A DNA stretch of 64,000 bases from an uncultured delta proteobacterium (lineage in GTDB: Bacteria; Desulfobacterota; RBG-13-43-22): the NCBI GenBank assembly GCA_963743305.1, contig CAVUPH010000014.1, positions 192,001-256,000 on the forward strand, in the 5' to 3' direction. The notes beneath the pieces are model-generated. The model saw only the letters and a list, made by a program, of their open reading frames with translations. It ran no database searches and had not been told where the DNA came from. Positions 3,355 to 55,507 of the stretch are shown here, piece by piece. Made by a program: the position numbers and the translations under genes. The stretch's first letter is position 1. Every line of letters begins with the position of its first letter.

Positions 3355-4098
3355 ATGGAGGCCTCCCGTCTCTGCCTTAATCGAATGGTCCGGTTCAGTA
3401 TGACGACATTAAAAACCACTGCTAAGGAACCGCCGGCACCCGAATTCCTTAAAGAAATTCCGGCCAGTCCGACATTCCTGAACCTTCCGGAAGCCAAGCG
3501 GGATCGAATTATCTTGGCGGCCACCCGGGAATTTTCAGAAAAGGGATACCAGGGAGCTTCCATCAACACCCTGGTGGACGACCTGGGAATCTCCAAGGGA
3601 TCGATATTCCAATATTTTTCTAACAAGAAAGGCCTTTTTCTCTTTATCTTCCAGGCGGCGGTGGCTCAGGTCCGCAAAACGCTGGTAACGGTAAAAGAAG
3701 AAACCGAGGAATTGGAGGTCTTTGAACGAATCAGGAGTTCACTCCTGGCCGGAGTCGATTTCGTTCGTCGGCATCCCCATATCTATAGAATATATTTGAA
3801 ATTACTGTTCGATCGGGACGCCCCTTTCCGCAATGAGCTGCTTCAGGCCGTTCGACTATTTTCCTCCGAATATCTGGGTTCTCTGGTGCGAAAGGGGATG
3901 GACCGGGGGGAGATCCGCCGGGATATCGCCCCGGAACAGGCGGTCTTTATCCTGGACGCGGTGCTGGACCGATACCTGCAAGCCTATATGGTTCCTTATC
4001 TGGACCACAGAGGCAATATCTACCGGGTTGATCAAAAAAAGGTGGAAGAGTGGGCGGTCGGACTGGTTACTATTTTACGAAAAGGCTTGCAAGGATAG
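3355..4098 (+). CDS. TetR/AcrR family transcriptional regulator (true start may be ATG 3400)
   Basis: N-terminal HTH: KRDRIILAATREFSEKGYQGASINTLVDDLGISKGSIFQYFSNKKGLF. Confidence 0.92.
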   Translation: MEASRLCLNRMVRFSMTTLKTTAKEPPAPEFLKEIPASPTFLNLPEAKRDRIILAATREFSEKGYQGASINTLVDDLGISKGSIFQYFSNKKGLFLFIFQAAVAQVRKTLVTVKEETEELEVFERIRSSLLAGVDFVRRHPHIYRIYLKLLFDRDAPFRNELLQAVRLFSSEYLGSLVRKGMDRGEIRRDIAPEQAVFILDAVLDRYLQAYMVPYLDHRGNIYRVDQKKVEEWAVGLVTILRKGLQG

Positions 4099-4136
4099 TT
4101 TTTTTTCTTTATAAAATGACCAGGTGGTCATTTTAT
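4087..4136 (+). promoter_or_regulatory. sigma70 promoter of the mqn operon overlapped by a perfect palindromic operator
   Basis: TTGCAA(4087)-N17-TATAAA(4110); ATAAAATGACC-aggt-GGTCATTTTAT at 4111-4136 has 11-bp perfect arms. Confidence 0.7.
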
Positions 4137-4151
4137 TGGAGGTGGTTGAAA

Positions 4152-5240
4152 GTGCTTGAAGTCAGAGATGCGCGGCTAATGCCCATCCGGGAAAAGGTTT
4201 TATCGGGGGGGCGCTTGGAAAAGGAAGATGGTTTGGCCCTCTATCAAAGCCCTGACCTGCTGGGTGTGGGGGCTTTGGCCAACCGGATCCGAGAGAACCG
4301 AAACGGTAACCGGGCCTATTACATCGTCAACCAGCATATTAACTATTCGAATATCTGTCAGAACCGCTGCCGTTTTTGCGCCTTCGGTCGGGACCCGGAG
4401 GATCCGCTGGCTTATCAAATGAGCCTGGAGGATATCGAGGCGAAAGTCCGGGAACGGCTGTCCGACCCGATCAGCGAAATTCACATCGTCGGGGGTATCC
4501 ATCCCACCCTTCCCTTTGCCTACTACCTGGAAATGCTTCAACGGATTAAAAGAATCCGCCCGTCGGTTCACCTGCAGGCCTTCACGGCCGTGGAAATCGC
4601 CCATTTGGCTCACCTGGCCCAAAAATCCATTGAAGACACCTTGTCGGTCTTGATGGAAGCCGGGCTGGGATCCTTGCCGGGGGGCGGGGCGGAGGTCTTC
4701 AGCTCCCGTATCCGGGAAAACCTCTGCGCCAAAAAACTCCCTTCCCGGGATTGGATTTCCGTTTGCCAGACGGCCCACCGTCTAGGGCTCCATACCAATG
4801 CCACCCTGCTCTACGGCCATCTGGAGACCCTGGAAGAGCGGGTGGACCACTTGCTGGCCCTGCGGAAGGCCCAGGATGAGACCGGAGGCTTTCTGACCTT
4901 TATCCCGCTCGCTTTCCATCCCAAGAATACCGAGTTGGCGGAAATGGCCGGTACGACCGGCGTGGATGATCTGAAAAATATCGCCGTGGCTCGCCTGATG
5001 CTGGACAACTTTCCCCACATCAAGTCCTTCTGGATCATGATCGGTCCCAAACTGGCCCAGATTTCCCTGTCCTTTGGAGCCGACGATATAGATGGAACGG
5101 TCATTGAAGAACGGATTACCCATATGGCCGGGGCGGAAACCGCCCAAGCCATGACCCGGGAGGAAATTCTTCACCTGATCCGGGAAGCCGGACGTGAACC
5201 GGTGGAGCGGGATACCTTGTATAATACCGTAGTCCACTAA
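4152..5240 (+). CDS. mqnE: Aminofutalosine synthase (radical SAM)
   Basis: CQNRCRFC; LDNFPHIKSFWIMIG; FGADDIDGTVIEERITHMAGA. Start placed at GTG 4152 after the GGAGGT RBS. Confidence 0.88.
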   Translation: MLEVRDARLMPIREKVLSGGRLEKEDGLALYQSPDLLGVGALANRIRENRNGNRAYYIVNQHINYSNICQNRCRFCAFGRDPEDPLAYQMSLEDIEAKVRERLSDPISEIHIVGGIHPTLPFAYYLEMLQRIKRIRPSVHLQAFTAVEIAHLAHLAQKSIEDTLSVLMEAGLGSLPGGGAEVFSSRIRENLCAKKLPSRDWISVCQTAHRLGLHTNATLLYGHLETLEERVDHLLALRKAQDETGGFLTFIPLAFHPKNTELAEMAGTTGVDDLKNIAVARLMLDNFPHIKSFWIMIGPKLAQISLSFGADDIDGTVIEERITHMAGAETAQAMTREEILHLIREAGREPVERDTLYNTVVH

Positions 5241-5262
5241 ACCCGGTTGCAGCTCAAACTCG

Positions 5263-6282
5263 ATGCGCCTCAATTCCCAACAAGCCCTGGACTGGTACCA
5301 ATCGGATCTCCTGACACTCGGGCAAGCCGCCCAGGAGGTTCGCTGGAAGCTCCACCCCGAACCAGTGGTCACTTATGTGGTGGACCGGAACATTAATTAC
5401 ACCAATGTCTGCCTTTCCGGCTGCCGTTTTTGCGCCTTTTATCGGCAGGCGGATTCCCCGGAAGCCTATGTGCTGGACCGGGAGGTCTTGGGCAAAAAAA
5501 TTGAAGAAACATTGGCCCTGGGAGGCACCCAGATACTGCTTCAGGGCGGGATGCACCCTGATCTGCCCTTTTCATTTTATGAGGACTTGCTTCAATGGAT
5601 CAAGGGCCGTTACCCGATCCACATCCACGGATTTTCGCCTCCCGAAATCAATCACCTGGCCCGGATAGCGGGTATGCCCCTGGAAACGGTTTTAATCCGG
5701 CTTAGGGATTCCGGACTTGGCTCCATTCCGGGCGGGGGGGCTGAAATCCTGGTGGACCGGGTCAGAGAACGGGTTTCTCCCCGAAAAGGGACGAGCGCCG
5801 AGTGGCTTCAGGTCATGGAAACAGCCCACCGCATTGGGTTGCGAACTACCGCCACCATGATGTTCGGCCATCTGGAGACCGTCGCAGACCGGATTGAGCA
5901 CCTCTTGGCCGTACGAGAACTGCAGGATCGTACCGGCGGCTTCACCGCTTTCATCCCCTGGACCTTCCAGCCGGGGAATACCGATCTGCGGCGGATTCCG
6001 GCCGGAGGGACGGAGTACTTGCGTATGCTGGCCCTGTCCCGGTTGGTCCTCGACAACATTCCCAACATCCAGGCTTCCTGGGTTACCCAGGGGCCCAAGG
6101 TCGGGCAAATCGCCCTTCTGTTCGGAGCCAACGACCTGGGCAGCACGATGATCGAAGAAAATGTGGTGGCCGCCGCCGGGGTGGCTTACCGCTTATCTAT
6201 TGAAGAGCTGGCCCGCCTGATCACGGCCGCCCGTTTTATCCCCCAACAGCGGGACACCTTTTACCAAAAGGTGGCGACATGA
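5263..6282 (+). CDS. mqnC: Cyclic dehypoxanthinyl futalosine synthase (radical SAM)
   Basis: DRNINYTNVCLSGCRFCAFYR; QASWVTQG; GANDLGSTMIEENVVAAAG. Confidence 0.9.
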   Translation: MRLNSQQALDWYQSDLLTLGQAAQEVRWKLHPEPVVTYVVDRNINYTNVCLSGCRFCAFYRQADSPEAYVLDREVLGKKIEETLALGGTQILLQGGMHPDLPFSFYEDLLQWIKGRYPIHIHGFSPPEINHLARIAGMPLETVLIRLRDSGLGSIPGGGAEILVDRVRERVSPRKGTSAEWLQVMETAHRIGLRTTATMMFGHLETVADRIEHLLAVRELQDRTGGFTAFIPWTFQPGNTDLRRIPAGGTEYLRMLALSRLVLDNIPNIQASWVTQGPKVGQIALLFGANDLGSTMIEENVVAAAGVAYRLSIEELARLITAARFIPQQRDTFYQKVAT

Positions 6283-7145
6283 CCCCCCGGGTGGCGGTTA
6301 TCGCCAGGGTTGGCGCTCATCGGGCTTTTCTGGAGCAAGGCGCCCGAGAGTTAAGTGTTCAGCCCTTGAACACTCCATTCGGGTTAAGCGTTCCGATCCA
6401 TTTTTTGGAGTCGGAGGGCATCCCCTTTGTGGTCTTATCCCGCCATGGGGAGGACCGATATGCTACCGCGGCCCCCTTCGTAAACGACCTGGCCAACATC
6501 TGGGCACTGAAAGAAGCCGGCATCGAAAAAATCCTGTCCTGGTCGGCTCCCGGATCCCTGAATCCGGCAATGGCGCCGGGTTCCCTGGTGGTGGTGGATG
6601 ATCTGCTGGATGAAACCCGTTCCGGACCCCGGTCTTTTTTCGAGGGGAAGGGTATCGGGGTAATCCGGCAGGAGGCCGTGTTCTGTCCGGAAATTCGGGC
6701 GTTGATGATTGAAAAACTGGCGGGGGTCCCGTTCCTTCTTCATTCCCAAGGAGTCTATGTCTCCGTGGAAGGTCCCCGCCTGGAAACCAAGGCGGAGATC
6801 CGCAAGTATCGCCTGCTCGGAGGAGACCTGATCGGCATGAATCTGGCGCCGGAGGCCTTCCTGGCCAAGGAACTGGAAATGTGTTACGGGGCCTTGTGCT
6901 ATCCCGTCAATTTTGCCGAAGGGGTCAAGGTACGACCTTACGTGCGGGGGATCCTATTTGAGGGATTGGCCTTTCCCGAGGAAATGGCGCGGGTCAAAGA
7001 AGTGGAAAAGGCCTTCCCGGAACTGATCCTGCCTTTATTGGGCCCCTTGACGGAAACCCCCCGCGCCTGCCCCTGCCCCGTCGCCATGGAGCGCTACAAA
7101 ATCCGGGGAGACATCGGAGAAGACTTTCACACATGGATCAAATAA
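6279..7145 (+). CDS. MTAP/PNP-fold nucleoside phosphorylase/hydrolase with atypical active site (candidate futalosine-cleaving enzyme)
   Basis: TPFG, SRHG, ANIWALK, GSL, EGPRLETKAE motifs; ATGA overlap with mqnC. Confidence 0.8.
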   Translation: MTPRVAVIARVGAHRAFLEQGARELSVQPLNTPFGLSVPIHFLESEGIPFVVLSRHGEDRYATAAPFVNDLANIWALKEAGIEKILSWSAPGSLNPAMAPGSLVVVDDLLDETRSGPRSFFEGKGIGVIRQEAVFCPEIRALMIEKLAGVPFLLHSQGVYVSVEGPRLETKAEIRKYRLLGGDLIGMNLAPEAFLAKELEMCYGALCYPVNFAEGVKVRPYVRGILFEGLAFPEEMARVKEVEKAFPELILPLLGPLTETPRACPCPVAMERYKIRGDIGEDFHTWIK

Positions 7146-8335
7146 CGCTCTACCAGGCCCGCTGGATCGTCCCGGTTAGCCTTCCGCCCATTGAACGAGG
7201 GGTCGTCGCGGTCCGAAAAGGCGAGATAACCGCGCTAGGGGGGGAAAAGGAAATTTCCCTGACCTTTCCCGGGGAACGGCGGGACCTGGGCCAAGGAGCG
7301 ATACTTCCCGGATTGATCAATGCGCATACCCATGTGGAACTGTCCCGGCTTAAAGGTCTCATTCCGGAAGGTTTGGGTTTCGTACCCTGGGTGAGGCACC
7401 TGCTGTCTCTCAAAGAAAAAACCAAGGCGGAGAATCCGGACGAGGCCGTGGGACCGGCCTGGGATGAAATCAGCCGTACCGGCACCTGTGCCGCCGGGGA
7501 CTGGATCAGCCTGGAGTGCCTGATCCCGCGAGGGTCTTCATCGAAAGTATTCCGCCGGTTATTCTTTGAAGTGATCGGATTTGACTCCTCGGGGTTGACT
7601 TTGCCGGAGGTCCTCGACGAGGGACCGGCGACGGACCTATTCGGAAGTTTAACCCTGGGGGCCCACGCCCCCCATAGCACCTCGGCCGCTTTGCTCCAGG
7701 CCGCCAAAACCTGGACCCGGCGAAGGGGTCTGCCGCTGGCCATTCATGTGGCTGAAACCAAAGAGGAAACGGAATTCCTGCTCACCGGGAAGGGCGTCTG
7801 GAAGGACTTTTTAATTGAGCGGGGGAAGTGGGTGGAGGACTGGAAGGCCCCCAAGACCACGCCGGTAAAATACCTGGACCGCTTGGGGCTGCTGGATGAA
7901 AATACCCTCGCGGTTCACCTGACCCAGGCGGATCCGAGCGACCTATCCATTCTGCGGGATCGAAGCGTGCGGGTGGTGGTCTGCCCGCGAAGCAACCGGT
8001 TTATTGTCGGGGCACTTCCGGATATTCCGTTCATGGTGCGGACCGGCCTGAAACCGGCCCTAGGCACCGACAGCTTGGCCAGTAATGCCGACCTGGGCCT
8101 CTGGGGAGAGATGGAGACCGTACAACAGGCCTTCCCGGAGATCGACCCTTGGGAGATTATCCGGATGGCCACTATCCACGGAGCCTCGGCCCTGGATCTG
8201 TCCGGGGAACTGGGAGACCTGTCCCCGGGGAAAAAGGCCCGGATGTTTTTTCTTCCTTTGAACGAAGTCACTGAAGAAGAATTACCCTCCGCCATTATCC
8301 ATTCCGGCGGACGGCGCCTGGAATGGCTGCGGTGA
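7133..8335 (+). CDS. Amidohydrolase, probable 6-aminodeoxyfutalosine deaminase
   Basis: PGLINAHTH, HAPHST, IHVAET..E, GTDSLASN metal-binding motifs; located in the mqn operon. Confidence 0.75.
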   Translation: MDQITLYQARWIVPVSLPPIERGVVAVRKGEITALGGEKEISLTFPGERRDLGQGAILPGLINAHTHVELSRLKGLIPEGLGFVPWVRHLLSLKEKTKAENPDEAVGPAWDEISRTGTCAAGDWISLECLIPRGSSSKVFRRLFFEVIGFDSSGLTLPEVLDEGPATDLFGSLTLGAHAPHSTSAALLQAAKTWTRRRGLPLAIHVAETKEETEFLLTGKGVWKDFLIERGKWVEDWKAPKTTPVKYLDRLGLLDENTLAVHLTQADPSDLSILRDRSVRVVVCPRSNRFIVGALPDIPFMVRTGLKPALGTDSLASNADLGLWGEMETVQQAFPEIDPWEIIRMATIHGASALDLSGELGDLSPGKKARMFFLPLNEVTEEELPSAIIHSGGRRLEWLR

Positions 8336-8404
8336 CCGGATAAATCCCTGGTTGGAACCAAATTCCAAAATTGTTGAAAAAGTCGAAACTAACGGAAAGT
8401 AATC

Positions 8405-9853
8405 ATGGCTCATGCTGATTTACAGTCGTTTATATCCAGGCTGGAAAAGGAGGGGGAACTGGTTCGCATCAGGGAACCGCTGGATCCTTATCTGGAAATC
8501 TGCGAGGTAACCGACCGGGTCTGCAAGGCGGGCGGCCCCGCACTCCTTTTCGAAGCGGTGAAGGGGAAAACCGTTCCGGTGCTGACCAATGCCTTCGGTT
8601 CACTAAAACGGATGTGTTTGGCTCTGGAAGTGGAGCGCCTGGATCAAATCGGAGAGGAAATTCACCAGTTGTTGGCGCTCAAACCTCCCCAAGGTTTCAT
8701 GGATAAACTCCGGCTACTCCCTCGGCTCAAACGGCTCCGGGACCTGCTGCCGCGCACGGTGGACCGGGGACCCTGCCAGGAGGTCGTTTTTCAGGAAAAC
8801 CCGGACCTGTCCGCTTTCCCGGTTCTGACCACCTGGCCCCTCGATGGTGGTCCATTCATTACCCTGCCCCTGGTCATCACTCGGGATCCGCAGACCGGGA
8901 AACGCAACGTGGGCATGTACCGCCTCCAGGTATTTGACGCCAGGACCCTGGGGGTCCACTGGCAACTCCATAAAGTGGGGGCCCAGCATTTTCGCGCCGC
9001 CGAAGCCTCGGGGAAGGACCTGCCCGTGGCCGTGGCCCTGGGACCGGACCCGGCCCTGACCTACGCGGCCACCGCCCCGCTGCCGGAAGAGCTGGATGAA
9101 TTCATGTTCGCCGGGTTCTTGCGCCGGGAGCCCGTCAAACTGGTCAAATGTCGCACCATCGATCTGGAGGTGCCGGCCAATGCCCAGATCGTTATTGAAG
9201 GGATCGTCCCGGCCGGGAAGCGGCGACGGGAAGGGCCTTTCGGGGATCACACGGGCTATTATTCCCTGGCGGATGACTATCCACTGATGGAGGTGACCTG
9301 CATCACGCAGCGAAAGAACCCCATTTATCCGGCCACGGTGGTGGGGGTGCCGCCCATGGAAGACGCCTTCCTGGGCAAAGCCACGGAGCGTATCTTCTTG
9401 CCCCTGCTTCGACAGACCCTGCCGGAAATCCGGGATATGCATCTGCCGGCCGCCGGCGCTTTTCATAACTTTGCCCTGGTGTCCATCGAGAAACGCTACC
9501 CCGGCCACGCCAAAAAGGTGATGATGGCCCTCTGGGGGCTGGGACAGATGATGTTTTCCAAATTCATCGTGGTCTTTGACGGGGAGGTGGACGTCCAGGA
9601 CCTGAACCAGGTCCTCTGGCAATGGGGGGCCAATGTGGACCCCCGGCGAGACTCGGTACTGGTAGAAGGCCCGGTGGATGCGCTGGATCACGCCGCACCG
9701 CTGCCGGCTCTGGGCAGCAAAATCGGGTTTGATGCTACAACCAAATGGCCGGAGGAAGGATTCGGCCGGCCCTGGCCGGATAAGATCCGCATGGATCCTC
9801 AGGTGAGCGAACGGATCGACCAACTCTGGTCTAAGCTGGGGCTGCCGCGATGA
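8405..9853 (+). CDS. ubiD: UbiD-family decarboxylase (menaquinone pathway, MqnL-type)
   Basis: RNVGMYRLQ, EGPFGDHTGYY, PPMED, GPVDALDHA, KIGFDAT. Confidence 0.9.
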   Translation: MAHADLQSFISRLEKEGELVRIREPLDPYLEICEVTDRVCKAGGPALLFEAVKGKTVPVLTNAFGSLKRMCLALEVERLDQIGEEIHQLLALKPPQGFMDKLRLLPRLKRLRDLLPRTVDRGPCQEVVFQENPDLSAFPVLTTWPLDGGPFITLPLVITRDPQTGKRNVGMYRLQVFDARTLGVHWQLHKVGAQHFRAAEASGKDLPVAVALGPDPALTYAATAPLPEELDEFMFAGFLRREPVKLVKCRTIDLEVPANAQIVIEGIVPAGKRRREGPFGDHTGYYSLADDYPLMEVTCITQRKNPIYPATVVGVPPMEDAFLGKATERIFLPLLRQTLPEIRDMHLPAAGAFHNFALVSIEKRYPGHAKKVMMALWGLGQMMFSKFIVVFDGEVDVQDLNQVLWQWGANVDPRRDSVLVEGPVDALDHAAPLPALGSKIGFDATTKWPEEGFGRPWPDKIRMDPQVSERIDQLWSKLGLPR

Positions 9854-10710
9854 AGCAGCTTGCGACAATTTTTGAACTAGTCAAATTTGAACATACGATT
9901 TTTGCCCTGCCCTTTGCCTATCTGGGGGCCTGGCTGGCGGCTTCCGGTCCGCCCAGCCTGAAGGTGGGGCTGCTGATCCTGGGGGCCATGGTCGGCGCCC
10001 GGACCGCGGCCATGGCCTTCAACCGGATCGCCGATGCCAAAATCGACGCACTCAACCCGCGAACGGCCGGCCGACCGATTCCCTCTGGGCGCCTATCCCC
10101 GGCCGCAGCCTGGTTCGTATGTCTGACCGCGACGGCCGCTTTTTTTCTGGCCAGTTGGACACTAAACCCCCTGGCCTTGGCCCTTTCGCCCTTGGCTCTG
10201 GGGGTGATCCTGGCCTATTCCTACACCAAACGGTTTACGGCGACCTCTCACCTGATACTGGGGCTGGCCTTAGCGATAGCTCCCATCGGGGGTTGGGTGG
10301 CGGTGCGGAATGAACTGGAGCTGCTCCCCTTGGTCTTGGGGGCCGGGGTCTTGTTTTGGGTGGCCGGCTTCGATGTCCTCTATGCCTGCCAGGACGAATC
10401 CTTTGATCGCCGGCACGGGCTGTATTCCCTTCCGGCCCGCAGGGGAGCCGCGGCGGCCTTTCGGGTGGCCGGTTTTTTTCATTTTCTGGCTTTTCTGTTT
10501 TTTGCCCTCACGGGCCGACTGGCCAACCTGGGGGGATTCTATTTTATCGGGTTAACCCTGGTCTTTATCTTTCTCTTTCTGGAACACCTGATTATTTCCC
10601 CCCGAGATCTTTCCAAGCTGCAGACTGCTTTTTTCACCTTGAACGGAGCGGTCAGTCTGGTTCTTTTTTTGGCCACCTGGCTGGAATTTTGGAAGGGACG
10701 TTCGTACTAA
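9850..10710 (+). CDS. ubiA: UbiA-family polyprenyltransferase (MqnP-type)
   Basis: VKFEHTIFALPF, NRIADAKIDALNPRT.GR.IP.G, YSYTKRF, FDVLYACQD. Confidence 0.9.
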   Translation: MKQLATIFELVKFEHTIFALPFAYLGAWLAASGPPSLKVGLLILGAMVGARTAAMAFNRIADAKIDALNPRTAGRPIPSGRLSPAAAWFVCLTATAAFFLASWTLNPLALALSPLALGVILAYSYTKRFTATSHLILGLALAIAPIGGWVAVRNELELLPLVLGAGVLFWVAGFDVLYACQDESFDRRHGLYSLPARRGAAAAFRVAGFFHFLAFLFFALTGRLANLGGFYFIGLTLVFIFLFLEHLIISPRDLSKLQTAFFTLNGAVSLVLFLATWLEFWKGRSY

Positions 10711-13455: not shown

Positions 13456-15276
13456 TTACAAATCCTTCATAGCGATTTCTCGGATCGTCAGCGGCTGGCC
13501 GGACTCGTCCGTAACGGTGGCCTGTCTTTCATTGAACTGAACCCGCCTAAATTCCGTATGGATGATCAGGGAGGCCTGTTTCCCCCTAATCAGGGTTCCG
13601 GTATGAATAACCTGTTGGACCTTGACCAGGGGCTTCATTTTTTCCTGGTCTTCCTCTTCCTTCATTTTTTTGATCTGCTCGTTAAGCCCCTGAATGACTT
13701 GGTCCTGTTCCTTAATGGCCCGTTGGTGGGCCAGGATGGCTTCGGTAACTTGATCCTGCTGCTCCATCAACTTATTTAACGATTCTTCCGCAGACTTTAT
13801 TTTTAAATCCAGGTTTTGATATTCCCACTCCGCCTGGGCCAGGCGGGCCGATTCGTTTTTTTTCCCCAATTCTTCAATCTGGACTTTCAGGGATTTCTGT
13901 TCCAAGATCCCGCGATCCTGAATCTGAGCCAGATGGGCAATCTGGCCATCATAATTTTTTGTTTCCCGTTTCAACTTTTCAATTTCTTTTCTAAGCACCT
14001 CTTGTTCTTTTTTCCGGTTTTCAATTTCCAGACCGAGTTGTTCGCTCAATTCCTTAGCCTGTGAATCGACCCCGATAATCAAGGTACATGGACGAGAGGC
14101 ATCGGAACCGATAATCGGCGCTTCGATCCCTTTCCGGGCAGAAATGGTGGAGGAGATAATTTTTCCAGATGGAGAGCTCATCGACAAAAGGCCGTTGATC
14201 TCAATATCCCCATGCAGCACCTCATCTCGGACACTGATATCCCCCATGGCCTGAATAGTGGACGCTTCTATATAGCGGGCTTTAATATTTCCCTTGGTCT
14301 TGACCCGGGATCCAATAATGCCTCCCTGAATATCGATATCCCCTTCCATGTCCACTTCGGCCTTATTGATTTCCATAGCCGTCAAACGCCCGCCTTTAAC
14401 CCGAAATCCCTCCTGGATAATCCCGCGGACATTGATATGGCCACTAAACTGGATGTGGCCGGTCTCCAGTCCCACGTCTCCCTCGATTCTCAGTTCCGGA
14501 TAAACTGAGATCTGGCCATCTCTGGTCAGGGCCGCGCGCCCGCCGGTCTTGGCAAGAATCTTGAGTCCATCCTCCGAAAGCTTGGTGTTTTCCCCCGCCA
14601 ACAAGAGGGCATCCCGCGACTGCTCTACCGGGATCAATTGCCCGAAAACGTTTTTTCCGGGTACCTCTTTGACCAAGGGGATTTTTTCGGCCAAAAGGCC
14701 TCCTTCCTTGACTTGCTGGATTTCTCCTTTATCCTTAAAGTCAATCATTCCGCTTTCGCGAACGGTTCCGACCTTATGTCCCTCGGTGTCAAAGTGATAG
14801 ACGATCTTCGCGTCTTCTCCCGACCGGGGGGGGGTTCCTTCGGCAATCAACCAGCCCTCTTCCTTCGGTTCCCGACGAGATAAAAAATCGGAAAGGTCGT
14901 TATCCCCGATCAGTCCGTAAACAATTCCTTTTTGGGAAATATATTCTTTCAAGGCCTCCAGGGTGATGGAATCCGGGGTCGATTCCGGGGGAAATATTCT
15001 GGCGCTCAACTGGCCATCAGCGATCACTATTTTAAACCCCATCGATTCAAGTTCCGGAATGTTCGTTTCCTGGGACTCGGCCTCTTTCGAAGGGCCGGCG
15101 GTTGTTTGTTCTTCTGTCTCCACGGGCGGGGGTCCGGTAGGCGGCCCATCCTCGAAAACAATTTTGAATTTTTGGCCGCATTTTAAGCAAGGGGCCATTT
15201 TATGTAGGGCGGTTTCCGGGACGCGGTATCTGGTCCCGCAGGCAGGGCAAAGGGCGGGTCGTTTCTGAATCTCCAT
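13456..15276 (-). CDS. FapA (DUF342) family flagellar assembly protein with N-terminal zinc ribbon
   Basis: CPACGTRYRV...CLKCGQKF; IAEGTPP..GEDAKI, GMIDFKD, GDVGLETGHIQFSG, beta-helix followed by coiled coil. Confidence 0.85.
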   Translation of the reverse strand: MEIQKRPALCPACGTRYRVPETALHKMAPCLKCGQKFKIVFEDGPPTGPPPVETEEQTTAGPSKEAESQETNIPELESMGFKIVIADGQLSARIFPPESTPDSITLEALKEYISQKGIVYGLIGDNDLSDFLSRREPKEEGWLIAEGTPPRSGEDAKIVYHFDTEGHKVGTVRESGMIDFKDKGEIQQVKEGGLLAEKIPLVKEVPGKNVFGQLIPVEQSRDALLLAGENTKLSEDGLKILAKTGGRAALTRDGQISVYPELRIEGDVGLETGHIQFSGHINVRGIIQEGFRVKGGRLTAMEINKAEVDMEGDIDIQGGIIGSRVKTKGNIKARYIEASTIQAMGDISVRDEVLHGDIEINGLLSMSSPSGKIISSTISARKGIEAPIIGSDASRPCTLIIGVDSQAKELSEQLGLEIENRKKEQEVLRKEIEKLKRETKNYDGQIAHLAQIQDRGILEQKSLKVQIEELGKKNESARLAQAEWEYQNLDLKIKSAEESLNKLMEQQDQVTEAILAHQRAIKEQDQVIQGLNEQIKKMKEEEDQEKMKPLVKVQQVIHTGTLIRGKQASLIIHTEFRRVQFNERQATVTDESGQPLTIREIAMKDL

Positions 15277-15378: not shown

Positions 15379-15391
15379 GGCAATTTTTTCC
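15379..15391. promoter_or_regulatory. Putative enhancer, GG-N9-CC (ftr-like) class
   Basis: GGCAATTTTTTCC about 175 bp upstream of a sigma54 promoter; the same motif occurs at 29301 and 47064. Confidence 0.5.
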
Positions 15392-15553: not shown

Positions 15554-15569
15554 CGGCATCTAAATTGCA
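15554..15569 (+). promoter_or_regulatory. sigma54 -24/-12 promoter
   Basis: CGGCATCTAAATTGCA (GG-N10-GC). Confidence 0.75.
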
Positions 15570-15603
15570 TTAACAAACTAAAAAAACTAAGGAGCTATGG
15601 CCT

Positions 15604-16086
15604 ATGGATATCCAAAAAATCGGAATTTCTTCGTCCCTGCCCTCAGGGGGGCAGAACCAGGAGATCAAAAAGACATCGGATTTTCAACGGATCCTTCAGG
15701 AGGCCCATCAATCCGTCAGCGCCTCGAAACCAGATCCGAGTCTTCTGCTCAGTCCCCCCACTCAACCCCTGTCCCCGGGATTTGAAATCGGCCCGCTGAA
15801 AGGAGTTATAGAAATTCAACCCGCGGACCAACTGCGAGCCCAAGGAGTTTCGGCGGCCGAAAAGACCCTGGATTTACTGGGGCAATACCAGCAGGCCCTG
15901 TCAGATCCGGCTCAATCGCTCAAGCAAATCAGCCCCCTGGTTGAATCCCTGTCACAAAAAGTTGACCAGTTGCAAAAGTTGACCCAGCAATTCGCCGCTG
16001 GGGATCCTTTGCATAAAATTATCCAGGATGTCGGGGTGGTCTCGGCCTCGGAGATCGCGAAATTTAATCGCGGAGATTATGTCTAA
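15604..16086 (+). CDS. Flagellar-regulon protein, FliX-like
   Basis: RAQGVSAAEKTLDLLGQYQQALSD and DPLHKIIQDVGVVSASEIAKF resemble the two conserved blocks of alphaproteobacterial FliX as recalled from memory; AAGGAG RBS. Confidence 0.6.
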   Translation: MDIQKIGISSSLPSGGQNQEIKKTSDFQRILQEAHQSVSASKPDPSLLLSPPTQPLSPGFEIGPLKGVIEIQPADQLRAQGVSAAEKTLDLLGQYQQALSDPAQSLKQISPLVESLSQKVDQLQKLTQQFAAGDPLHKIIQDVGVVSASEIAKFNRGDYV

Positions 16087-16098
16087 AAGGGAACGTAC

Positions 16099-16707
16099 AT
16101 GACCATTTCCATAGGCTCAACCTTGCCGACCCTGGAAGAACTCCCGGCGGTAGCCACCAGGGGGATTTCCCTAGGCACTCGTCGAAATTCCACTTTTCCT
16201 CAACTTTTGGAGACCAAACTGTCCCAGCCCGTCCCGGCAGGGGAAGGGCCGAAGCAGACGAGTATCGAATATATAGTCCAACCCGGCGACACTTTATGGA
16301 AACTGGGTGTCAAAAAATTTCAGACAGATCCCTACCAAATCGCGCGGGATAACGGAATCAAAAATCCGGACCGAATCTATCCTGGACAAAAACTGACGAT
16401 CCGGAAAGAGGTAAATCCGAACGGTCAGGAGGTGACCGCCAGTTGGTATGGGGCGGACTACCATAATAAACCCACCGCCAGCGGGGAACGATTCGATATG
16501 TATAAGAATACGCTGGCCCATAAGACCTTGCCCCTGGGAACCGAGGTTCGATTGACCAATCCCAAAAATGGTCTGCAGGTCGTGGCCAAAATCAATGACC
16601 GAGGCCCTTTCATTTCCGGAAGGGATGTGGATCTTTCTTACGGGCTGGCTCGGAAACTGGATATGGTTGCCCAAGGTGTGGGAAAACTAAAGATGGAAAT
16701 CTTATGA
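16099..16707 (+). CDS. LysM + RlpA-family (DPBB) lytic transglycosylase
   Basis: YIVQPGDTLWKLG...NGIKNPDRIYPGQKL (LysM); ASWYG...TASGERFDM...AHKTLPLGT...INDRGPF...DLS (RlpA). Confidence 0.9.
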   Translation: MTISIGSTLPTLEELPAVATRGISLGTRRNSTFPQLLETKLSQPVPAGEGPKQTSIEYIVQPGDTLWKLGVKKFQTDPYQIARDNGIKNPDRIYPGQKLTIRKEVNPNGQEVTASWYGADYHNKPTASGERFDMYKNTLAHKTLPLGTEVRLTNPKNGLQVVAKINDRGPFISGRDVDLSYGLARKLDMVAQGVGKLKMEIL

Positions 16708-17401: not shown

Positions 17402-18787
17402 TTGAATTCAGGAAAAATCCTGATCATTGACGATACCGCCTATATCCTCGATTTATTATCCGAGTTTTTGGGGGCGAAGGGGTACGAGGTCAAGATTGCC
17501 CAAGACGGTACAACCGGGATTGCCGGGTTGGAAAAGGATTCCTATGATCTGGTTTTAACGGACTTAAAAATGCCGGGATTGGGCGGGATGGACGTTTTGA
17601 ACTATGTCATCAATCACTGCCCGGAGACCCTTTGCATCATTTTGACCGGACATGGGTCCATTAAAAACGCGGTTGCCGCGGTTAAAGCCGGGGCCTACGA
17701 CTATCTGACCAAACCGGTGGATCTGGAAGAAATTCTGATCGCGATTAAGCGGGCGATCGAATTCCGCAACCTAAAAAGGGAAAACGTTCTGCTTCGGAAC
17801 CAGTTAAGGAAGAAGTATAGATTTGATAATATCATCGGCGACAGCGGCCCCATGCAAAAGGTATTTGAAACCATTGAAAAAGTGGCCGACACCGACAGCA
17901 CCATCATGATTTTGGGAGAAAGCGGCACCGGAAAGGAACTCGTGGCCCGAGCGCTTCATTATAACAGCAGCCGGGCCAAGGGCCCCATTGTGCCGGTCAA
18001 TTGCGCGGCTATTCCCTCTGAGTTGTTGGAGAGCGAACTTTTCGGCCATGAGAAGGGGGCTTTCACCAATGCCATCCGGACCCGGATCGGTCGATTTGAA
18101 TTGGCCCATGGGGGCACAATTTTTTTAGACGAAATAGGTGACATGGATCCGGTGCTGCAGAGCAAACTATTACGGGTATTGCAAGACCGGGCCTTTGAAC
18201 GCATTGGAGGTACTCGAACTATTCACGTCGATATCCGCGTGATTACGGCCACGCACCGTAATCTAAGAAAGGCGGTGGAGGACGGTCACTTTCGAGAAGA
18301 CTTGTATTATCGACTCAACGTAATTCCTATTGAGATCCCACCGCTACGGGAGCATAAATCCGATATCCCGCTTTTAGTCCATCATTTTATTGACCAGTTT
18401 AACCAAGGCAAAAAACGAAATATCCAGGGCCTGGAGGAGGAGGCCCTAAAAAGGCTCCAGGATTACGAATGGCCCGGGAATATTCGCGAGTTGGAAAATA
18501 TGATTGAACGGGTCTCGATCCTGACCAATAACGAGGTGATTACTCTTTCGGATCTACCGGAAAGGATCCAAAAAATCCCGCCTCAAGATCAAGCCGTGCC
18601 CCCCGACATTCCGGAAGAGGGGATCTTTCTGGATACCGCTGTCAATGAATTCGAACGAAAATTGATTCTCCAGGCCCTGATCAAGACCGGGTGGGTTAAA
18701 AACAAGGCGGCTCAATTGTTGAACCTCAACCGGACGACCTTGATCGAAAAAATAAAACGCCAAAACCTTCAGGCCCCCCCGACTTAG
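17402..18787 (+). CDS. sigma54-dependent response regulator (REC-AAA+-HTH), probable master flagellar activator
   Basis: IIDD, LTD54LKMP, GESGTGKE, GAFTNA, FLDEIG, WPGNIRELEN, HTH LNRTTLIEK; TTG start. Confidence 0.9.
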   Translation: MNSGKILIIDDTAYILDLLSEFLGAKGYEVKIAQDGTTGIAGLEKDSYDLVLTDLKMPGLGGMDVLNYVINHCPETLCIILTGHGSIKNAVAAVKAGAYDYLTKPVDLEEILIAIKRAIEFRNLKRENVLLRNQLRKKYRFDNIIGDSGPMQKVFETIEKVADTDSTIMILGESGTGKELVARALHYNSSRAKGPIVPVNCAAIPSELLESELFGHEKGAFTNAIRTRIGRFELAHGGTIFLDEIGDMDPVLQSKLLRVLQDRAFERIGGTRTIHVDIRVITATHRNLRKAVEDGHFREDLYYRLNVIPIEIPPLREHKSDIPLLVHHFIDQFNQGKKRNIQGLEEEALKRLQDYEWPGNIRELENMIERVSILTNNEVITLSDLPERIQKIPPQDQAVPPDIPEEGIFLDTAVNEFERKLILQALIKTGWVKNKAAQLLNLNRTTLIEKIKRQNLQAPPT

Positions 18788-18939: not shown

Positions 18940-18955
18940 TGGCATACTCCTTGCT
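18940..18955 (+). promoter_or_regulatory. sigma54 promoter
   Basis: TGGCATACTCCTTGCT. Confidence 0.8.
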
Positions 18956-19021: not shown

Positions 19022-20824
19022 TTGTTTCGAGCCAGGCCAAGCTATTTATTACGCATCGGTTTGATCTTTGTCGGATTGGCGGGGGTATTCCCGGGTTCGT
19101 TCCTGCGAGCGCAGGATCCGGAGGTGGCCGTGGGGGAGTTATTTCAAATCAAATCGGAGTCCGCGGAAGGAAAGATCCGGGTGATCTTGAAAATCAGGCA
19201 CCCGGTTAAGCATACGGTCTTCTCCCTGACCAATCCGGACCGGATCGTTATTAATTTGACCCCCAGCCTATTAAAATTGAGTCCTATTCCGGAATTGAAA
19301 ACCGGACCTATTCAACGACTGCGCTGTTCCCAATTCAACGAAAAGACGGTTCGCCTGGTTCTGGATCTGAAGCTAAAAGTCCCTTATTCAGTATCCACCC
19401 CGGGGGGTGATCCTTTTCAACTTTGGATCGATCTTGAAGATAACTTGAAAAAAGCCGAGACCCCGGCAGCGGCTCAATTCTCAAACGAATCCGTTTCCCT
19501 TGCCCGGAACAAGGAGGCAGAGGACCGGAAAACCGGGAAAACGGTCGAAAAAAACTCCCCACCGGTGTCCAAGATGAAAGAAGCCATCGCTTCGGTTACT
19601 CCGGAATCCACCCCCAAGGGCAGCCCTCCGGAACCGTTGCTGGAGACCGGGCGCGGCCTCCTGGAGCAAAAAAAATACGCCCAGGGAAGGGAGGCGTTTT
19701 TCCATTATCTGAATGTAGTCCCCTTGGAAAAACTTGATTTGCGGGTTGTGGAAGAAATCGTTCACAGTTATCGTTTGGAGGGAAACGCCCTTCAGGGCGA
19801 AAAGGCCCGCCGTCAAATTCTTCAAGCCTTCTCCCAGGCTCATGGACCCGCCGCCTTTCCGGCTTTAGCACAACTTGCTGATTTTTATATTGAATCAAAG
19901 CAATACCTGCTGGCCATCCAGCTCATCACTCCTTTGGAATCCTTTCCTCAGGAAAAAAATGAAGGGAAAAAAATCTTCCAATCCCAGCTCCAAAGAGCCT
20001 TGATTCCTGTGCTGGAAGGGTTTTTCGCTCAGTCCAACTATACGGAAGTGCTCCGCTCGTATTACCGGCATCGGGAAGCCTTGCCGGATAGTCCGGAACC
20101 CCGGCTCTTCGTTCTATTGGGAAAAAGTTTCAAGGCCCTGGGACTGCCTGACCAGGCCGGCCGCTATTTCCAGGCGGCCTGGCAGCGGGGAAACCAGGAA
20201 CCCCGGGAAATGGTGGTGGATTGGGCGGAAATACTTATCGAAAAAGGCGATCAGGCCTCCGCCGTACCGCTCCTACGAAAGTTGATTGATCACCCGTCCG
20301 TTCCGGAAATTGAAAAACTGCGGGCTTACCTGCTTTTAGGCCGGGGTTGGTACCGGCAAGGTAACTATGTCGAAGGGCTGAAGATCCTGGAGGAGTCCAT
20401 CGCCCGATATCCTTCCACGGAGGCCTATCCTGAGCGCTGGTATCTTTTGGGGTCCCTTTATTATGAAAGCCCGGCATTGAACCTCAAGGCCTATGAGGCC
20501 CTAAGGAAATTTATTGTCCGGAGCCAGGACCCGGCCAAAACCGCCTTGGCTTATGAGCGGATCGGAGACCTCTATTTTAGGGAAAAAAAAGGGGCCGCGG
20601 CCTGGGAGGCTTACCACCAGGCCCAGCAATTAAACCGACGGCCGGCTTCCCCCTTCTTGGCGCAAAAGATAAACCAATGCCGCTTGTTTTTGGAACCGAA
20701 GGGCCAGGGATCAATCCCGGCGAATCCGACCGGCGAAATAGACCCTTTTTGGAAGAAGGTCTATGACTCGAGGGCGAGCCAGCAAGTCCTGGAGAAAAAG
20801 ATCAGCGACTTGAGGCTAAACTGA
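19022..20824 (+). CDS. Exported AMIN-domain + TPR-repeat protein
   Basis: Signal-like N-terminus; FSLTNPDRIVINL...SQFNEKTVRLVLDL (AMIN); multiple helical TPR-like repeats. Confidence 0.75.
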   Translation: MFRARPSYLLRIGLIFVGLAGVFPGSFLRAQDPEVAVGELFQIKSESAEGKIRVILKIRHPVKHTVFSLTNPDRIVINLTPSLLKLSPIPELKTGPIQRLRCSQFNEKTVRLVLDLKLKVPYSVSTPGGDPFQLWIDLEDNLKKAETPAAAQFSNESVSLARNKEAEDRKTGKTVEKNSPPVSKMKEAIASVTPESTPKGSPPEPLLETGRGLLEQKKYAQGREAFFHYLNVVPLEKLDLRVVEEIVHSYRLEGNALQGEKARRQILQAFSQAHGPAAFPALAQLADFYIESKQYLLAIQLITPLESFPQEKNEGKKIFQSQLQRALIPVLEGFFAQSNYTEVLRSYYRHREALPDSPEPRLFVLLGKSFKALGLPDQAGRYFQAAWQRGNQEPREMVVDWAEILIEKGDQASAVPLLRKLIDHPSVPEIEKLRAYLLLGRGWYRQGNYVEGLKILEESIARYPSTEAYPERWYLLGSLYYESPALNLKAYEALRKFIVRSQDPAKTALAYERIGDLYFREKKGAAAWEAYHQAQQLNRRPASPFLAQKINQCRLFLEPKGQGSIPANPTGEIDPFWKKVYDSRASQQVLEKKISDLRLN

Positions 20825-20827
20825 CCC

Positions 20828-22246
20828 ATGGGCGAAAAGGCATTATTAATTGCGGAAAACGACCCCGAAGCCCGGGAGGTTTTTGTAGAAAGCTGCCCCA
20901 AAAACGGTTTTTGGATCCAATGGGTCAATAGGGGGGAAGAAGCCCTCCGCTGGTTGGACCAAAGACCTTTCGATCTGGTGATTACCGAAATGGAACTGGA
21001 AGATTTAAGCGGCCTACAGCTTTTGGGTCAGGTCAAACAGCGTTTTCCGGAGACGCCGGTCATCGTTATGACCGCCGGGGGAAGCATTCCACAGGCCATC
21101 GAGGCCATCAAGCAAGGGGCCTTGGATTACGTAGTCAAGCCTCTTTCCGGGGTCTGGTTGGAAGAACGAATCGGGCAGCTCGAGCATCAGCGGACAGGGT
21201 CGTTGGGCGAACCCGAGGGCCCCATCAGGGCCGGATCAGTGTCCCGCCCGATTGTCACCCAGAACCGGAAGATGCTGGATCTCCTGGAATTATGCCGCAA
21301 GGTCGCTGCCAGTAAAGCCACTGTGCTGATTCAGGGAGAGAGCGGCACGGGAAAAGAACTGTTTGCCCGCTATCTCCACGAGCGCAGTCCCCGAAATAAG
21401 GAGGCTTTTATTGCCGTCAATTGTGCCTCTCTCCCAGACGGGCTATTGGAAAGCGAATTGTTCGGCCATGAAAAGGGGGCCTTTACCGGGGCCATCCAAA
21501 AAAAATTGGGGAAATTTGAGTTGGCGCAGCGGGGGTCCATTTTATTGGATGAAATCAGTGAAATGAATACTCAATTGCAGGCCAAGCTGCTCCGGGTGCT
21601 GCAGGAAAACGAGTTGGATCGGATCGGCGGACGACATCCGGTTCCTCTGGATATACGGGTCATCGCCACAACCAATCGAAATCTAGAAGAGAGCGTTGAG
21701 AAGGGGGATTTTCGCGCCGACCTGTATTACCGTTTAAATGTCATCCCTTTGCGCATTCCGCCTTTGCGGGAACGCCCGGAGGATATTGAACTGCTGGTCG
21801 CCTATTTTGTGCGAAAATTAGCCAAACTCTATAATCGAGATGTGGTTCGGGTGGCGGACCAGGCTTTGAACTGGATCAGGCAACGGGAGTGGCGGGGAAA
21901 TGTCCGCGAACTGGAAAACCTGTTGGAACGTACCGTGCTTATCTCCTCCGGTCCGACGATTGAAATGAAAGATTTTTGCCTGGAGGACTCCGCGCCCCCG
22001 ACACCGGAGGTCCGGATCGATGGGTCGTCGACTTTCTCCCTCCGGGAAGTAGAAAAAGACCTGATCTTCAAGGCCTTGGATAAGACGGAGGGCAACCGAA
22101 CCCAGGCTGCCAATATTCTGGGTATCAGCGTCCGGACCCTCCGGAACAAACTGCAGGAATATAAGCAGGAGGCGGGGTCCTGGACGGAGGAGGGATTGGT
22201 CCCGATTCACCCCCCGACCATGGTATGGGATTTGCAGAAAGCTTAA
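20828..22246 (+). CDS. sigma54-dependent flagellar activator (FlbD/FleR/FlgR-like) with atypical receiver (E54)
   Basis: GESGTGKE, GAFTGA, HTH LGISVRTLRNKLQEY; receiver reads LLIAEND...DLVITEMELE. Confidence 0.9.
   Translation: MGEKALLIAENDPEAREVFVESCPKNGFWIQWVNRGEEALRWLDQRPFDLVITEMELEDLSGLQLLGQVKQRFPETPVIVMTAGGSIPQAIEAIKQGALDYVVKPLSGVWLEERIGQLEHQRTGSLGEPEGPIRAGSVSRPIVTQNRKMLDLLELCRKVAASKATVLIQGESGTGKELFARYLHERSPRNKEAFIAVNCASLPDGLLESELFGHEKGAFTGAIQKKLGKFELAQRGSILLDEISEMNTQLQAKLLRVLQENELDRIGGRHPVPLDIRVIATTNRNLEESVEKGDFRADLYYRLNVIPLRIPPLRERPEDIELLVAYFVRKLAKLYNRDVVRVADQALNWIRQREWRGNVRELENLLERTVLISSGPTIEMKDFCLEDSAPPTPEVRIDGSSTFSLREVEKDLIFKALDKTEGNRTQAANILGISVRTLRNKLQEYKQEAGSWTEEGLVPIHPPTMVWDLQKA
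22221..22236 (+). promoter_or_regulatory. sigma54 promoter of the flgB operon, inside the 3' end of the upstream gene
   Basis: TGGTATGGGATTTGCA (GG-N10-GC). Confidence 0.65.
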
Positions 22247-29300: not shown

Positions 29301-29313
29301 GGAAAAATTTGCC
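29301..29313. promoter_or_regulatory. Putative enhancer, GG-N9-CC (ftr-like) class
   Basis: GGAAAAATTTGCC, with a weaker copy GGAAAAAAATTTC at 29268. Confidence 0.5.
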
Positions 29314-47063: not shown

Positions 47064-47076
47064 GGTAAAAATTTCC
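47064..47076. promoter_or_regulatory. Putative enhancer, GG-N9-CC (ftr-like) class
   Basis: GGTAAAAATTTCC about 190 bp upstream of the flgF promoter. Confidence 0.5.
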
Positions 47077-47252: not shown

Positions 47253-47268
47253 TGGCACAGGCATTGCA
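47253..47268 (+). promoter_or_regulatory. sigma54 promoter of the flgF operon
   Basis: TGGCACAGGCATTGCA. Confidence 0.85.
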
Positions 47269-51931: not shown

Positions 51932-52309
51932 ATGCCGATTAACACCTTAGCCGTGAATCCGCCGCCCCTCCCGCTCCCGACGAAACCGGGTGGGAAAAAG
52001 ATCGATGAAAAGAAGCTAAAGAAGGCCTCCGAAGATTTTGAGGCCCTGTTTATCAATCAGCTCCTGCAATCCATGCGTCGGACGGTCCTGAAATCCAAAT
52101 TACTGGAAGACGCCCCCGGCAAGGAGGTTTATCAATCCCTGTTTGACCGGGAGATCAGCAAGAAAATGGCTCAAAAAGGGGCATTGGGCGTGGGTAAGCT
52201 CATCTACCGGAACGTTTTGGAACACGAAAAGGCTCGGATGGCCCGTCCGGCGAACGGTTTGCAAATGCCTGAAAGCGGAACCTTAACTGGATCGGGAGGA
52301 ACGCCATGA
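51932..52309 (+). CDS. flgJ: FlgJ, rod-binding domain only (no muramidase)
   Basis: KLKKASEDFEALFINQLLQSMRRT...YQSLFD; 125 aa. Confidence 0.88.
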   Translation: MPINTLAVNPPPLPLPTKPGGKKIDEKKLKKASEDFEALFINQLLQSMRRTVLKSKLLEDAPGKEVYQSLFDREISKKMAQKGALGVGKLIYRNVLEHEKARMARPANGLQMPESGTLTGSGGTP

Positions 52310-55218: not shown

Positions 55219-55282
55219 CCCAACATCCGGCGCTCAGCGCCCAGCGTATTTCATTTAATCGTTTTCGCCAGGGAGGGTGAAA

Positions 55283-55507
55283 ATGCTTATTTTAACGAGA
55301 AAAATAGGGGAAACCATCACCATCGGGGATCGGATCAAAATCGTGGTGGTCGATATTAAGGGCAAACAGGTCCGGTTAGGGGTTGAGGCCCCACAGGAGA
55401 CCACGATTTTTCGGGAAGAAATTTATCAAAAGATCCAGGCGGAGAACCGACTGGCGGCCCAATGGGATTTTTCCCAGTTGGATCAACTGACCGATCAATT
55501 AAAATAA
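55283..55507 (+). CDS. csrA: Translational regulator CsrA
   Basis: [17 protein letters not shown]...QVRLGVEAP...FREEIY. Confidence 0.95.

Follow-up and report, generated by a model that had tools for sequence, protein, structure and literature searches.

The FliX-like gene and its surroundings

The window analysed here is a 64-kb stretch of DNA from an uncultured delta proteobacterium of the sulfate-reducer type (GCA_963743305.1, contig CAVUPH010000014.1, positions 192,001 to 256,000) and represents a flagellar super-locus. We describe a small gene of this locus which codes for a relative of FliX, together with its promoter region and two neighbouring sigma54 activators, EBP1 and EBP2. FliX of Caulobacter is a small partner protein of the sigma54 activator FlbD, which it binds and switches by the state of the early flagellar structure. 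An initial annotation of the window had called attention to the gene. The 160-aa open reading frame (ORF) quoted there is real and begins with ATG; its translation in the ORF list carries both quoted sequence blocks, RAQGVSAAEKTLDLLGQYQQALSD at residues 78-101 and DPLHKIIQDVGVVSASEIAKF at residues 134-154. The feature start of 15554 given there was found to mark the promoter, while the ORF itself begins at 15604 (Table 1).

The order of genes in the first part of the flagellar region is FapA (- strand), FliX-like gene, RlpA-like gene, small membrane protein, EBP1, AMIN-TPR, EBP2. The RlpA-like gene starts 12 nt past the stop codon of the FliX-like gene and the two are probably in one operon. 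EBP2, the gene of which ends 17 nt before flgB, is followed by flgB, flgC, fliE, fliF, fliG, fliH, fliI, fliJ, a FliK-like gene, flgD and flgE. The order continues with fliL, fliM, fliN, fliO, fliP, fliR, flhB, flhA, flhF, a MinD/FlhG-like gene, fliA and cheY, and the last flagellar run consists of flgF, flgG, flgA, flgH, flgI, a short FlgJ, FlgN, flgK, flgL, CsrA, FliW and FlgM.

Table 1 The FliX-like gene, its upstream elements and adjacent genes in the window.
Feature	Position	Strand	Basis and remarks
Candidate activator-binding site (UAS), one-mismatch copy of GGCAAAAATTGCC	15379..15391	.	164-176 nt upstream of the -24 element
Sigma54-type -24/-12 element GGCATCTAAATTGCA	15555..15569	+	GG-N10-GC, 9/11 consensus positions
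Ribosome-binding site AAGGAG	15590..15595	+	8 nt 5′ of the ATG, read from the sequence
FliX-family protein, 160 aa	15604..16086	+	ATG start; ORF list with profile, alignment and model evidence
RlpA-like LysM + DPBB lytic transglycosylase	16099..16707	+	Pfam DPBB_1 8.5e-18, LysM 3.6e-13; TIGR00413 rlpA 5.6e-34
Small protein, 111 aa, one hydrophobic N-terminal segment	16704..17039	+	Start overlaps the RlpA stop
Sigma54 activator EBP1	17402..18787	+	Canonical receiver D54, AAA+ with GAFTNA, Fis-type HTH
Sigma54 activator EBP2, closer to FlbD than EBP1	20828..22246	+	Receiver E54 and N11, GAFTGA, Fis-type HTH

Relationship to the FliX family

A homology search with the window protein resulted in 27 homologs at E≤0.01 among 111 candidates, mostly of 160 aa. 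None of these 27 carries a Pfam domain and none has a functional name. The window protein and 15 close homologs were aligned (alignment A1) and the profile was run against 1.84 billion cluster representatives (50% identity). At E≤1e-3 this gave 1121 representatives, with 305 at ≤1e-10 and 21 at ≤1e-30. Most of them have about 130-170 aa and many are aligned over most of their length. A second alignment (A2) comprises the window protein and 148 of the best 150 representatives, P0007 and P0025 having been left out as they were already among the homologs.

Upon a Pfam scan of the 149 members of A2, FliX (PF10768) was found at E≤0.1 in 48, and the next family in only 7. At E≤0.003 the FliX match occurs in 24 of 148, mostly spanning profile positions 1-134 of 135. 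The 25-bit gathering score of Pfam is reached by four members (P0145, 25.4; P0157, 28.2; P0164, 28.7; P0168, 25.2), and these matches are near full-length and co-linear. As about 0.4 false hits are expected over the whole library at E≤0.003, the 24 ordered matches cannot be attributed to chance. When the members are binned by rank from the window subfamily outwards, FliX matches (E≤0.003) are found in 0 of 23, 3 of 25, 4 of 25, 6 of 25, 3 of 25, and 8 of 25. The matches thus become commoner with distance, which places the window protein in that section of the family with the least resemblance to the Pfam model. One member, P0054, has a FliX match of 2.8e-4 and an identity of 38% to the window protein.

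Alignment of the A1 profile to the 24 FliX-scoring members by hhalign gave a probability of 100% (E 1.3e-40, 151 columns), which is expected by construction because these members had been retrieved with that very profile. The independent part of the homology chain is the match of the 24 members to a model built from recognised FliX proteins. An independent lead came from a language-model search of the ESM Atlas. The neighbour cluster at 0.94 consists of 5768 unnamed proteins and is commonest in Thermodesulfobacteriota, and the only named cluster shown is FliX (PF10768; 0.85, 182 of 256 shared features). The ten best named neighbours all fall into one family with the best of them. Models of other small flagellar proteins (FlgN, FliS, FliT, FlaG) do not match the window protein at E≤1 in Pfam or NCBIfam. 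FlgN is encoded separately in the window (52306-52818), and FlaG is encoded separately in one of the related loci described below (L030).

From these comparisons, the window gene is a divergent member of the FliX family, with homology running through intermediates. The FliX likeness that the initial annotation had noted stands for the family, which overlaps PF10768 and has the Atlas lead, but not for the window protein taken by itself.

Predicted structure and conserved residues

With 149 sequences, the AlphaFold2 model reached a mean predicted local distance difference test (pLDDT) of 82.6, compared to 64.0 for an earlier model with 16 sequences. In the former, the N-terminal ~72 residues are of low confidence apart from a short helix (24-39). 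They are followed by a three-helix bundle at residues 73-156 (helices 73-100, 106-127, and 135-156) with a pLDDT of 97-98. The 160-aa protein would thus consist of a flexible N-terminal part, which contains a conserved short helix (F27, L31), and a C-terminal three-helix bundle. It is small and helical and has no hydrophobic signal peptide.

Across the 149 members, the conserved N-terminal columns are M1, I3, F27, and L31. A central block at residues 86-123 follows the pattern E..L..L..Y...L.DP...LK...PL...L......L, and the conserved columns of the C-terminal region (130-159) are D134, L136, E150, and K153-F-x-R-G-D-Y159. The conserved end of the window-type family reads KFNRGDY. For FliX, PMC3096577 describes an N-terminus that varies and two conserved regions, a central (53-95) and a C-terminal one (116-142). 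The two-block conservation pattern of the window family matches this description. The same paper reports that binding of FlbD is lost in FliX L85K and that no FliX structure had been solved as of 2011.

A profile search of the PDB sequences gave 13 rows at E≤5 and no FliX-like chain among them. The best row (1e-05), the repeat neck of a C-type lectin, was taken as repeat/coiled-coil noise.

Promoter and upstream palindrome

The sigma54 promoter that had been proposed ahead of the gene is present as an element at -24/-12 and recurs in related loci. These loci were obtained by a genome scan, with one genome per species, which used a 35-row alignment (A3) and the pattern E[IVM][EQ][KR]FxRG[DE]Y. 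Of 63 stretches, 34 were confirmed. In 23 of the 34 loci, including 14 of the 16 closest ones, the 200 nt ahead of the homolog contain a sigma54 element (at least 8/11 positions). With a background of 0.053 per 200 nt, this is more than chance. In most of the 16 closest loci, the distance from the element to the start codon is ~45-57 nt.

In the window, the motif GGCAY-N5-TTGCA occurs twice compared to 0.21 expected occurrences, the other copy being ahead of flgF at 47254. The relaxed motif TGGCAC-N5-TTGC (at most 1 mismatch) has 6 matches in the window compared to 2.94 expected, and two of the six are on the opposite strand inside genes. Further sigma54-like elements precede the AMIN-TPR gene (18940), the FliK-like gene (29419), fliL (33766), and flgF (47253).

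The initial annotation had spoken of ftr-like enhancers at this locus; the second conserved cis-element found here is the palindrome GGCAAAAATTGCC, which lies upstream of the promoter. It occurs as an exact copy once in each of 8 loci, and in 11 loci when one mismatch is permitted. In 480,782 nt, all 11 of these occurrences are upstream of the FliX-like gene, at a distance of 79-445 nt from its called start, while ~0.3 are expected by chance. The copy of the window reads GGAAAAAATTGCC on the - strand. Two copies with two mismatches (29301-29313 and 47064-47076) each precede another sigma54 promoter, by ~118 and ~190 nt, respectively. At up to two mismatches the palindrome is not enriched across the window (6 copies compared to 4.73 expected), and it is only the positions of these two copies that are suggestive.

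The palindrome looks like a candidate binding site of an activator with Fis-type HTH. The FliX-like gene would then be a dedicated target of sigma54 and its activator. A direct repeat with two copies upstream of the gene, TC[GC]GCAATTT, was also considered. It is not enriched in the window (13 matches compared to 15.75 expected) and was dismissed.

Relatives in other genomes

The taxonomic picture applies to proteins that keep the motif used for the scan. By title, all of the 34 confirmed loci are from Thermodesulfobacteriota or "Deltaproteobacteria", the exception being a single 1.5 kb contig binned as Rikenella. Groups represented are Syntrophaceae, Syntrophorhabdus, Desulfatiglans, Desulfobulbia, and Desulfobacterales. 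The closest of the 34 relatives is 51% identical to the window protein, so the species of the window is not itself among them. In the contig from the Rikenella bin (L019), the N- and C-terminal stretches of the FliX-like protein are very similar to those of its counterpart from a Desulfobacteraceae locus (L024), and the contig is probably mis-binned.

Gene order is conserved in a considerable part of these loci. Searches by tblastn showed that the FliX-like gene is followed on the same strand by EBP2 and by flgB-flgC-fliE-fliF in 13 of the 34 loci (L003, L005-L016). EBP1 is located in between in 12 of these 13, and is missing from L003. L001 and L004 break off within EBP1 or shortly behind it. 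Orthologs of EBP1, which are 67-82% identical, are downstream of the FliX-like gene in 14 loci, and those of EBP2 are present in 13. Among the 16 closest loci, an activator is found downstream of the homolog in 15. An RlpA-like gene directly follows it in five of these (L001, L002, L006, L008, and L010), and in L001 and L002 the complete order FapA, FliX-like gene, RlpA of the window is retained. The 111-aa small protein, which does not match any Pfam or NCBIfam family, recurs with weak conservation behind the homolog in L001, L007, L009, L012, L013, and L014. The 18 more distant loci are arranged otherwise, and several of them are very short contigs.

The two sigma54 activators

For EBP2, the best NCBIfam row is Caulobacter FlbD with 423.8 bits, which is below the cut-off of 750, followed by AtoC with 415.2 bits. 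For EBP1, the best row is AtoC (485.3 bits), with FlbD at 330.7 bits. The EBP2 receiver of the window has E54 at the phospho-acceptor position and N11 at one position of the acidic pocket, as is evident from both the sequence and the alignment. This bears out the initial annotation, which had noted an adjacent activator with an E54 receiver and had also noted that a kinase gene is missing from the locus. Indeed, there is no histidine kinase among the window ORFs scanned, although one may be encoded elsewhere in the genome.

Two other proposals on the activators had to be given up. The FliX-like protein had been expected to co-occur with an activator showing the D-to-E exchange. However, the Glu is peculiar to the window and to L014, and the acceptor Asp is kept in 12 of the 13 EBP2 orthologs. 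A general link between FliX-like proteins and such activators was therefore rejected. A FleQ-like master regulator had also been postulated, but the receiver of EBP1 is canonical with the acceptor D54 in 15 of 15 sequences. FleQ has no acceptor Asp, and EBP1 is thus not FleQ-like in its receiver.

In the window and in loci L004-L016, the loop of EBP1 that contacts sigma54 reads GAFTNA instead of the usual GAFTGA, the Asn being nearly invariant (at least 90%) in a 13-row alignment. The EBP2 ortholog of L012 (12914-14240) is in two pieces, which is due to a frameshift or an assembly error.

Predicted complex of EBP2 and the FliX-like protein

One complex was predicted, with EBP2 (13-row alignment A4, the frameshifted L012 copy having been left out) and the FliX-like protein (A3) as partners. 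The ipSAE values were 0.54, 0.54, and 0.52, while the best control reached 0.02. At least 78% of the contacts are shared between the runs, and the pLDDT of the partner is 65 or higher. Of 80 solved complexes, 58 pass the mark applied to the score, as do 2 of 110 mismatched pairs. Only 7 of the solved complexes, but both of the passing mismatches, have values of 0.60 or less. A pass in this band is rated as wrong in most cases, except where the pairing was already likely a priori. Homology and gene order had made the guess reasonably likely, and the result therefore represents a modest rise in the odds. The pass is unlikely to reflect memory of a solved complex, since the PDB searches found no FliX-like chain and no FliX structure was available in 2011 according to PMC3096577. 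The complex with the 20828-22246 protein, which had been suggested as a check, thus passed against its controls, and the model lends weak support to a binding of EBP2 by the FliX-like protein.

Proposed function and its alternatives

We consider it somewhat likely, at a rough probability of 55%, that the gene codes for a divergent FliX-family protein which binds the FlbD-like activator and ties sigma54-dependent flagellar transcription to assembly of the basal structure. The protein is probably an activator-binding checkpoint factor. In the proposed mechanism, the FliX-like gene would head a short operon which also contains the RlpA-like transglycosylase and the small membrane protein. One of the adjacent activators would bind to the palindrome and would switch on the FliX-like gene via the sigma54 promoter. 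The product would then bind EBP2, which is the favoured partner, through the three-helix bundle and/or the N-terminal helix, and the binding would alter oligomerisation or DNA binding of EBP2. Sigma54-dependent rod, hook, and later genes would thereby follow the assembly of the basal structure. The net outcome would be a feedback loop in which the activator induces its own modulator. The data show the homology through intermediates and the conservation of gene order, promoter, and palindrome, whereas binding, the direction of control, and a possible independence from a kinase are inferred.

Several observations weigh against this proposal. The window protein itself has no FliX (PF10768) match at E≤1 in the Pfam scan, which gave weak coiled-coil-type rows only, and the NCBIfam scan returned nothing below E 0.22. 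The HMMER-type comparison with the FliX Pfam family, a check that the initial annotation had named, thus succeeded through intermediates and not with the protein directly. None of the 23 nearest cluster representatives (P0028-P0050) has a FliX match at E≤0.003. Among the 34 taxon-labelled relatives, the 25-bit cut-off is reached by none (the best being L034 with 22.4 bits) and a match at E≤0.05 is found in only 5. Such scarce matches below the cut-off fit with these proteins having been left unnamed. An Atlas search with the C-terminal domain alone, restricted to named clusters, gave no usable hit. A search with P0164 gave 37 hits and a search with the alignment of the 24 FliX-scoring members gave 52, none of which is named FliX, and tblastn of P0164 against plasmids did not find a match. 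A Foldseek comparison of two models to the PDB gave 0 hits at E≤1e-3, with generic three-helix bundles (syntaxin Habc, GAT) being retrieved. The band into which the complex score falls has to be added to this list.

The arrangement of genes and of control provides further points of this kind. The gene is found after a cheA-W-B-R-Z-Y operon in L030 and after cheX in L026, while L017 and L034 have it in non-flagellar surroundings, and no activator was found in the stretch scanned for these four distant members. As 12 of 13 EBP2 orthologs keep the acceptor Asp, ordinary kinase control may also operate. The retained Asp is nevertheless compatible with control of the FliX type, since FlbD is only said to lack "some key residues" in PMC3096577. 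In addition, the wiring differs from that in Caulobacter because the window gene is sigma54-dependent, while fliX is described as an early, CtrA-activated gene in PMC3930126.

A more far-reaching version of the proposal seems possible, but we regard it as rather doubtful. NtrC-family flagellar activators would be controlled in the manner of FliX by a partner protein, and not only by a kinase, outside Alphaproteobacteria as well, with the module being widespread in Thermodesulfobacteriota (at least 1121 clusters). Palindrome, sigma54 promoter, FliX-like gene, and activators, which adjoin each other here, would form a self-contained circuit in which the activator induces its own modulator. The flexible N-terminus might permit the export apparatus to read out the state of assembly.

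Alternatively, the protein could be an assembly factor for the RlpA-like transglycosylase at the flagellar base, acting as a chaperone, inhibitor, or targeting factor, and would then not have a role in transcription. The tight packing of the genes would agree with this, as there are only 12 nt to the RlpA-like gene and the gene for the small membrane protein overlaps the RlpA stop. An RlpA-like gene is directly next to the homolog in L001, L002, L006, L008, and L010 and is nearby in L026. In addition, FlgJ has only 125 aa and another wall enzyme may thus be needed. However, the RlpA-like gene follows in only 5 of the 16 closest loci, compared to 15 of 16 for an activator. The family likeness is to FliX, a factor linked to transcription, and the EBP2 complex prediction is 0.52 above controls. 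We thus consider a helper of RlpA unlikely.

At least as unlikely is a FlgM-like mode of action, in which a FliX-family protein with an N-terminal export signal holds the activator inactive until it is secreted upon opening of the type III export gate. The ~70 N-terminal residues, which are of low confidence or disordered and yet have M1, I3, F27, and L31 conserved across 149 members, would fit with an export signal, as would a small helical protein that lacks a hydrophobic signal peptide. Furthermore, the way in which FliX senses assembly is described as not understood in the publications considered here. On the other hand, FlgM is already encoded in the window (56041-56355, Pfam 6.9e-17). 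According to PMC3096577 and PMC3930126, FliX of Caulobacter both stimulates and inhibits FlbD and forms stable complexes in cells. Such an action would not call for secretion.

Finally, the FliX likeness could be convergent or compositional, in a lineage-specific helical flagellar protein of unrelated function; all FliX scores are low (at most 28.7 bits) with none for the window protein, and helical bundles attract weak matches (109 families at E≤0.1, generic bundles only with Foldseek), but we give little credit to this in view of 24 matches on one family, mostly over nearly the whole model in order, where ~0.4 false ones are expected, with 7 of 149 for the next family, an independent Atlas search that points to FliX, and a fitting flagellar context.

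Other features of the window

The FapA homolog (13456-15276, - strand) carries an additional zinc-ribbon at its N-terminus (Zn_ribbon_4, 1.9e-4) and ends in a long coiled coil, and its divergent arrangement with the FliX-like gene is also found in L001 and L002. An AMIN + TPR protein (19022-20824, + strand) is encoded between EBP1 and EBP2 and has its own sigma54-like promoter (18940-18954). In the 12 loci with both activators this gene is absent, as the gap between the activators is only ~190-400 nt.

The FliK hook-length-control domain (Pfam Flg_hook) was found in two genes, both on the + strand (29453-31318, 3.4e-14; 45663-46751, 1.9e-09). The FlgJ homolog (51932-52309, + strand; 125 aa) aligns to no more than the first ~110 positions of the FlgJ models, and a muramidase part is probably missing. 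Cleavage of the cell wall could instead be provided by the RlpA-like transglycosylase. At the end of the flagellar region, a CsrA-like ORF of 76 aa (55277-55507, + strand), recognised by eye, precedes FliW (55531-55965, + strand). These are adjoined by the FlgM gene mentioned above, which is on the - strand, and by a FlgM-associated protein of the DVU0524 family (56369-56788, - strand).

Outside the flagellar genes, an ORF of 778 aa (57988-60327, - strand) combines cysteine synthase (CysK/CysM, residues 7-297) and cysteinyl-tRNA synthetase (TIGR00435, residues 306-762) and is apparently a fusion protein for making cysteine and loading it onto tRNA. Two adjacent overlapping ORFs of 294 aa and 194 aa (1689-2988, - strand) both match MFS transporters and may represent a transporter gene that was broken up by a frameshift or a misassembly. 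Ahead of the flagellar region (4050-10710, + strand) there are genes of the futalosine pathway to menaquinone (MqnE, MqnC, an MTAP-like phosphorylase), and the same run contains an aminofutalosine-deaminase-like hydrolase, a UbiD-type decarboxylase, and a prenyltransferase.

Comparison with known systems

The papers listed by literature searches contain no description of FliX in Thermodesulfobacteriota or Deltaproteobacteria, and in PMC3096577 FliX is described as a factor of polarly flagellated Alphaproteobacteria. The databases show part of the link already, as P0157 and P0164 carry a precomputed PF10768 label. Our data suggest that the FliX-type checkpoint is used well beyond the group in which it was discovered. 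If this is true, residues conserved in both of these divergent sister groups from different phyla would be candidates for the activator-binding surface. A family that is labelled "hypothetical protein" or is mislabelled would obtain a name and a hypothesis, and a gap would be filled in what is known of the flagellar hierarchy in these anaerobes, which has been little studied. Palindrome, sigma54 promoter, FliX-like protein, and two activators would constitute a small cis/trans module amenable to tests in vitro. The finding is of moderate interest to specialists in flagellar regulation. Even if the activator is not bound, the conserved module of promoter and palindrome marks the gene as a tightly regulated flagellar gene.

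The window protein and alphaproteobacterial FliX are of similar small size (160 aa compared to 135 positions of the Pfam model) and are related at the family level through intermediates. They share the layout, with an N-terminus that varies and conservation in the centre and in the C-terminal part. Both are encoded among flagellar genes alongside a sigma54 system and a FlbD-like activator, and contact of the window protein with such an activator is predicted, with weak support. In contrast to FliX, the window protein is below every Pfam threshold and its host belongs to Thermodesulfobacteriota, not to Alphaproteobacteria. The KFNRGDY end conserved in its family may be a further difference. The gene adjoins the activators, while flbD of Caulobacter is located at the end of the fliF operon and away from fliX. 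It is under sigma54 with a palindromic site upstream, unlike fliX, which is described as CtrA-activated in PMC3930126. The window organism also has FliA/FlgM and CsrA/FliW, whereas C. crescentus does not use FliA according to PMC3930126.

With the kinase-activator pairs FlrB/FlrC, FleS/FleR, and FlgS/FlgR, the locus shares the canonical receiver of EBP1, which scores 346.6 bits with the FlgR model, a value below the cut-off. It differs from them in that the window yielded no gene for a sensor kinase and in that the FliX-like gene adjoins the activators. FlgM and sigma28 (FliA), both of which are encoded in the window, provide a parallel at another level. There is no sequence relationship (the Pfam FlgM model does not match) and the presumed target of the FliX-like protein is a sigma54 activator instead of a sigma factor, but in both cases a small and partly disordered regulator would couple a transcription factor to assembly.

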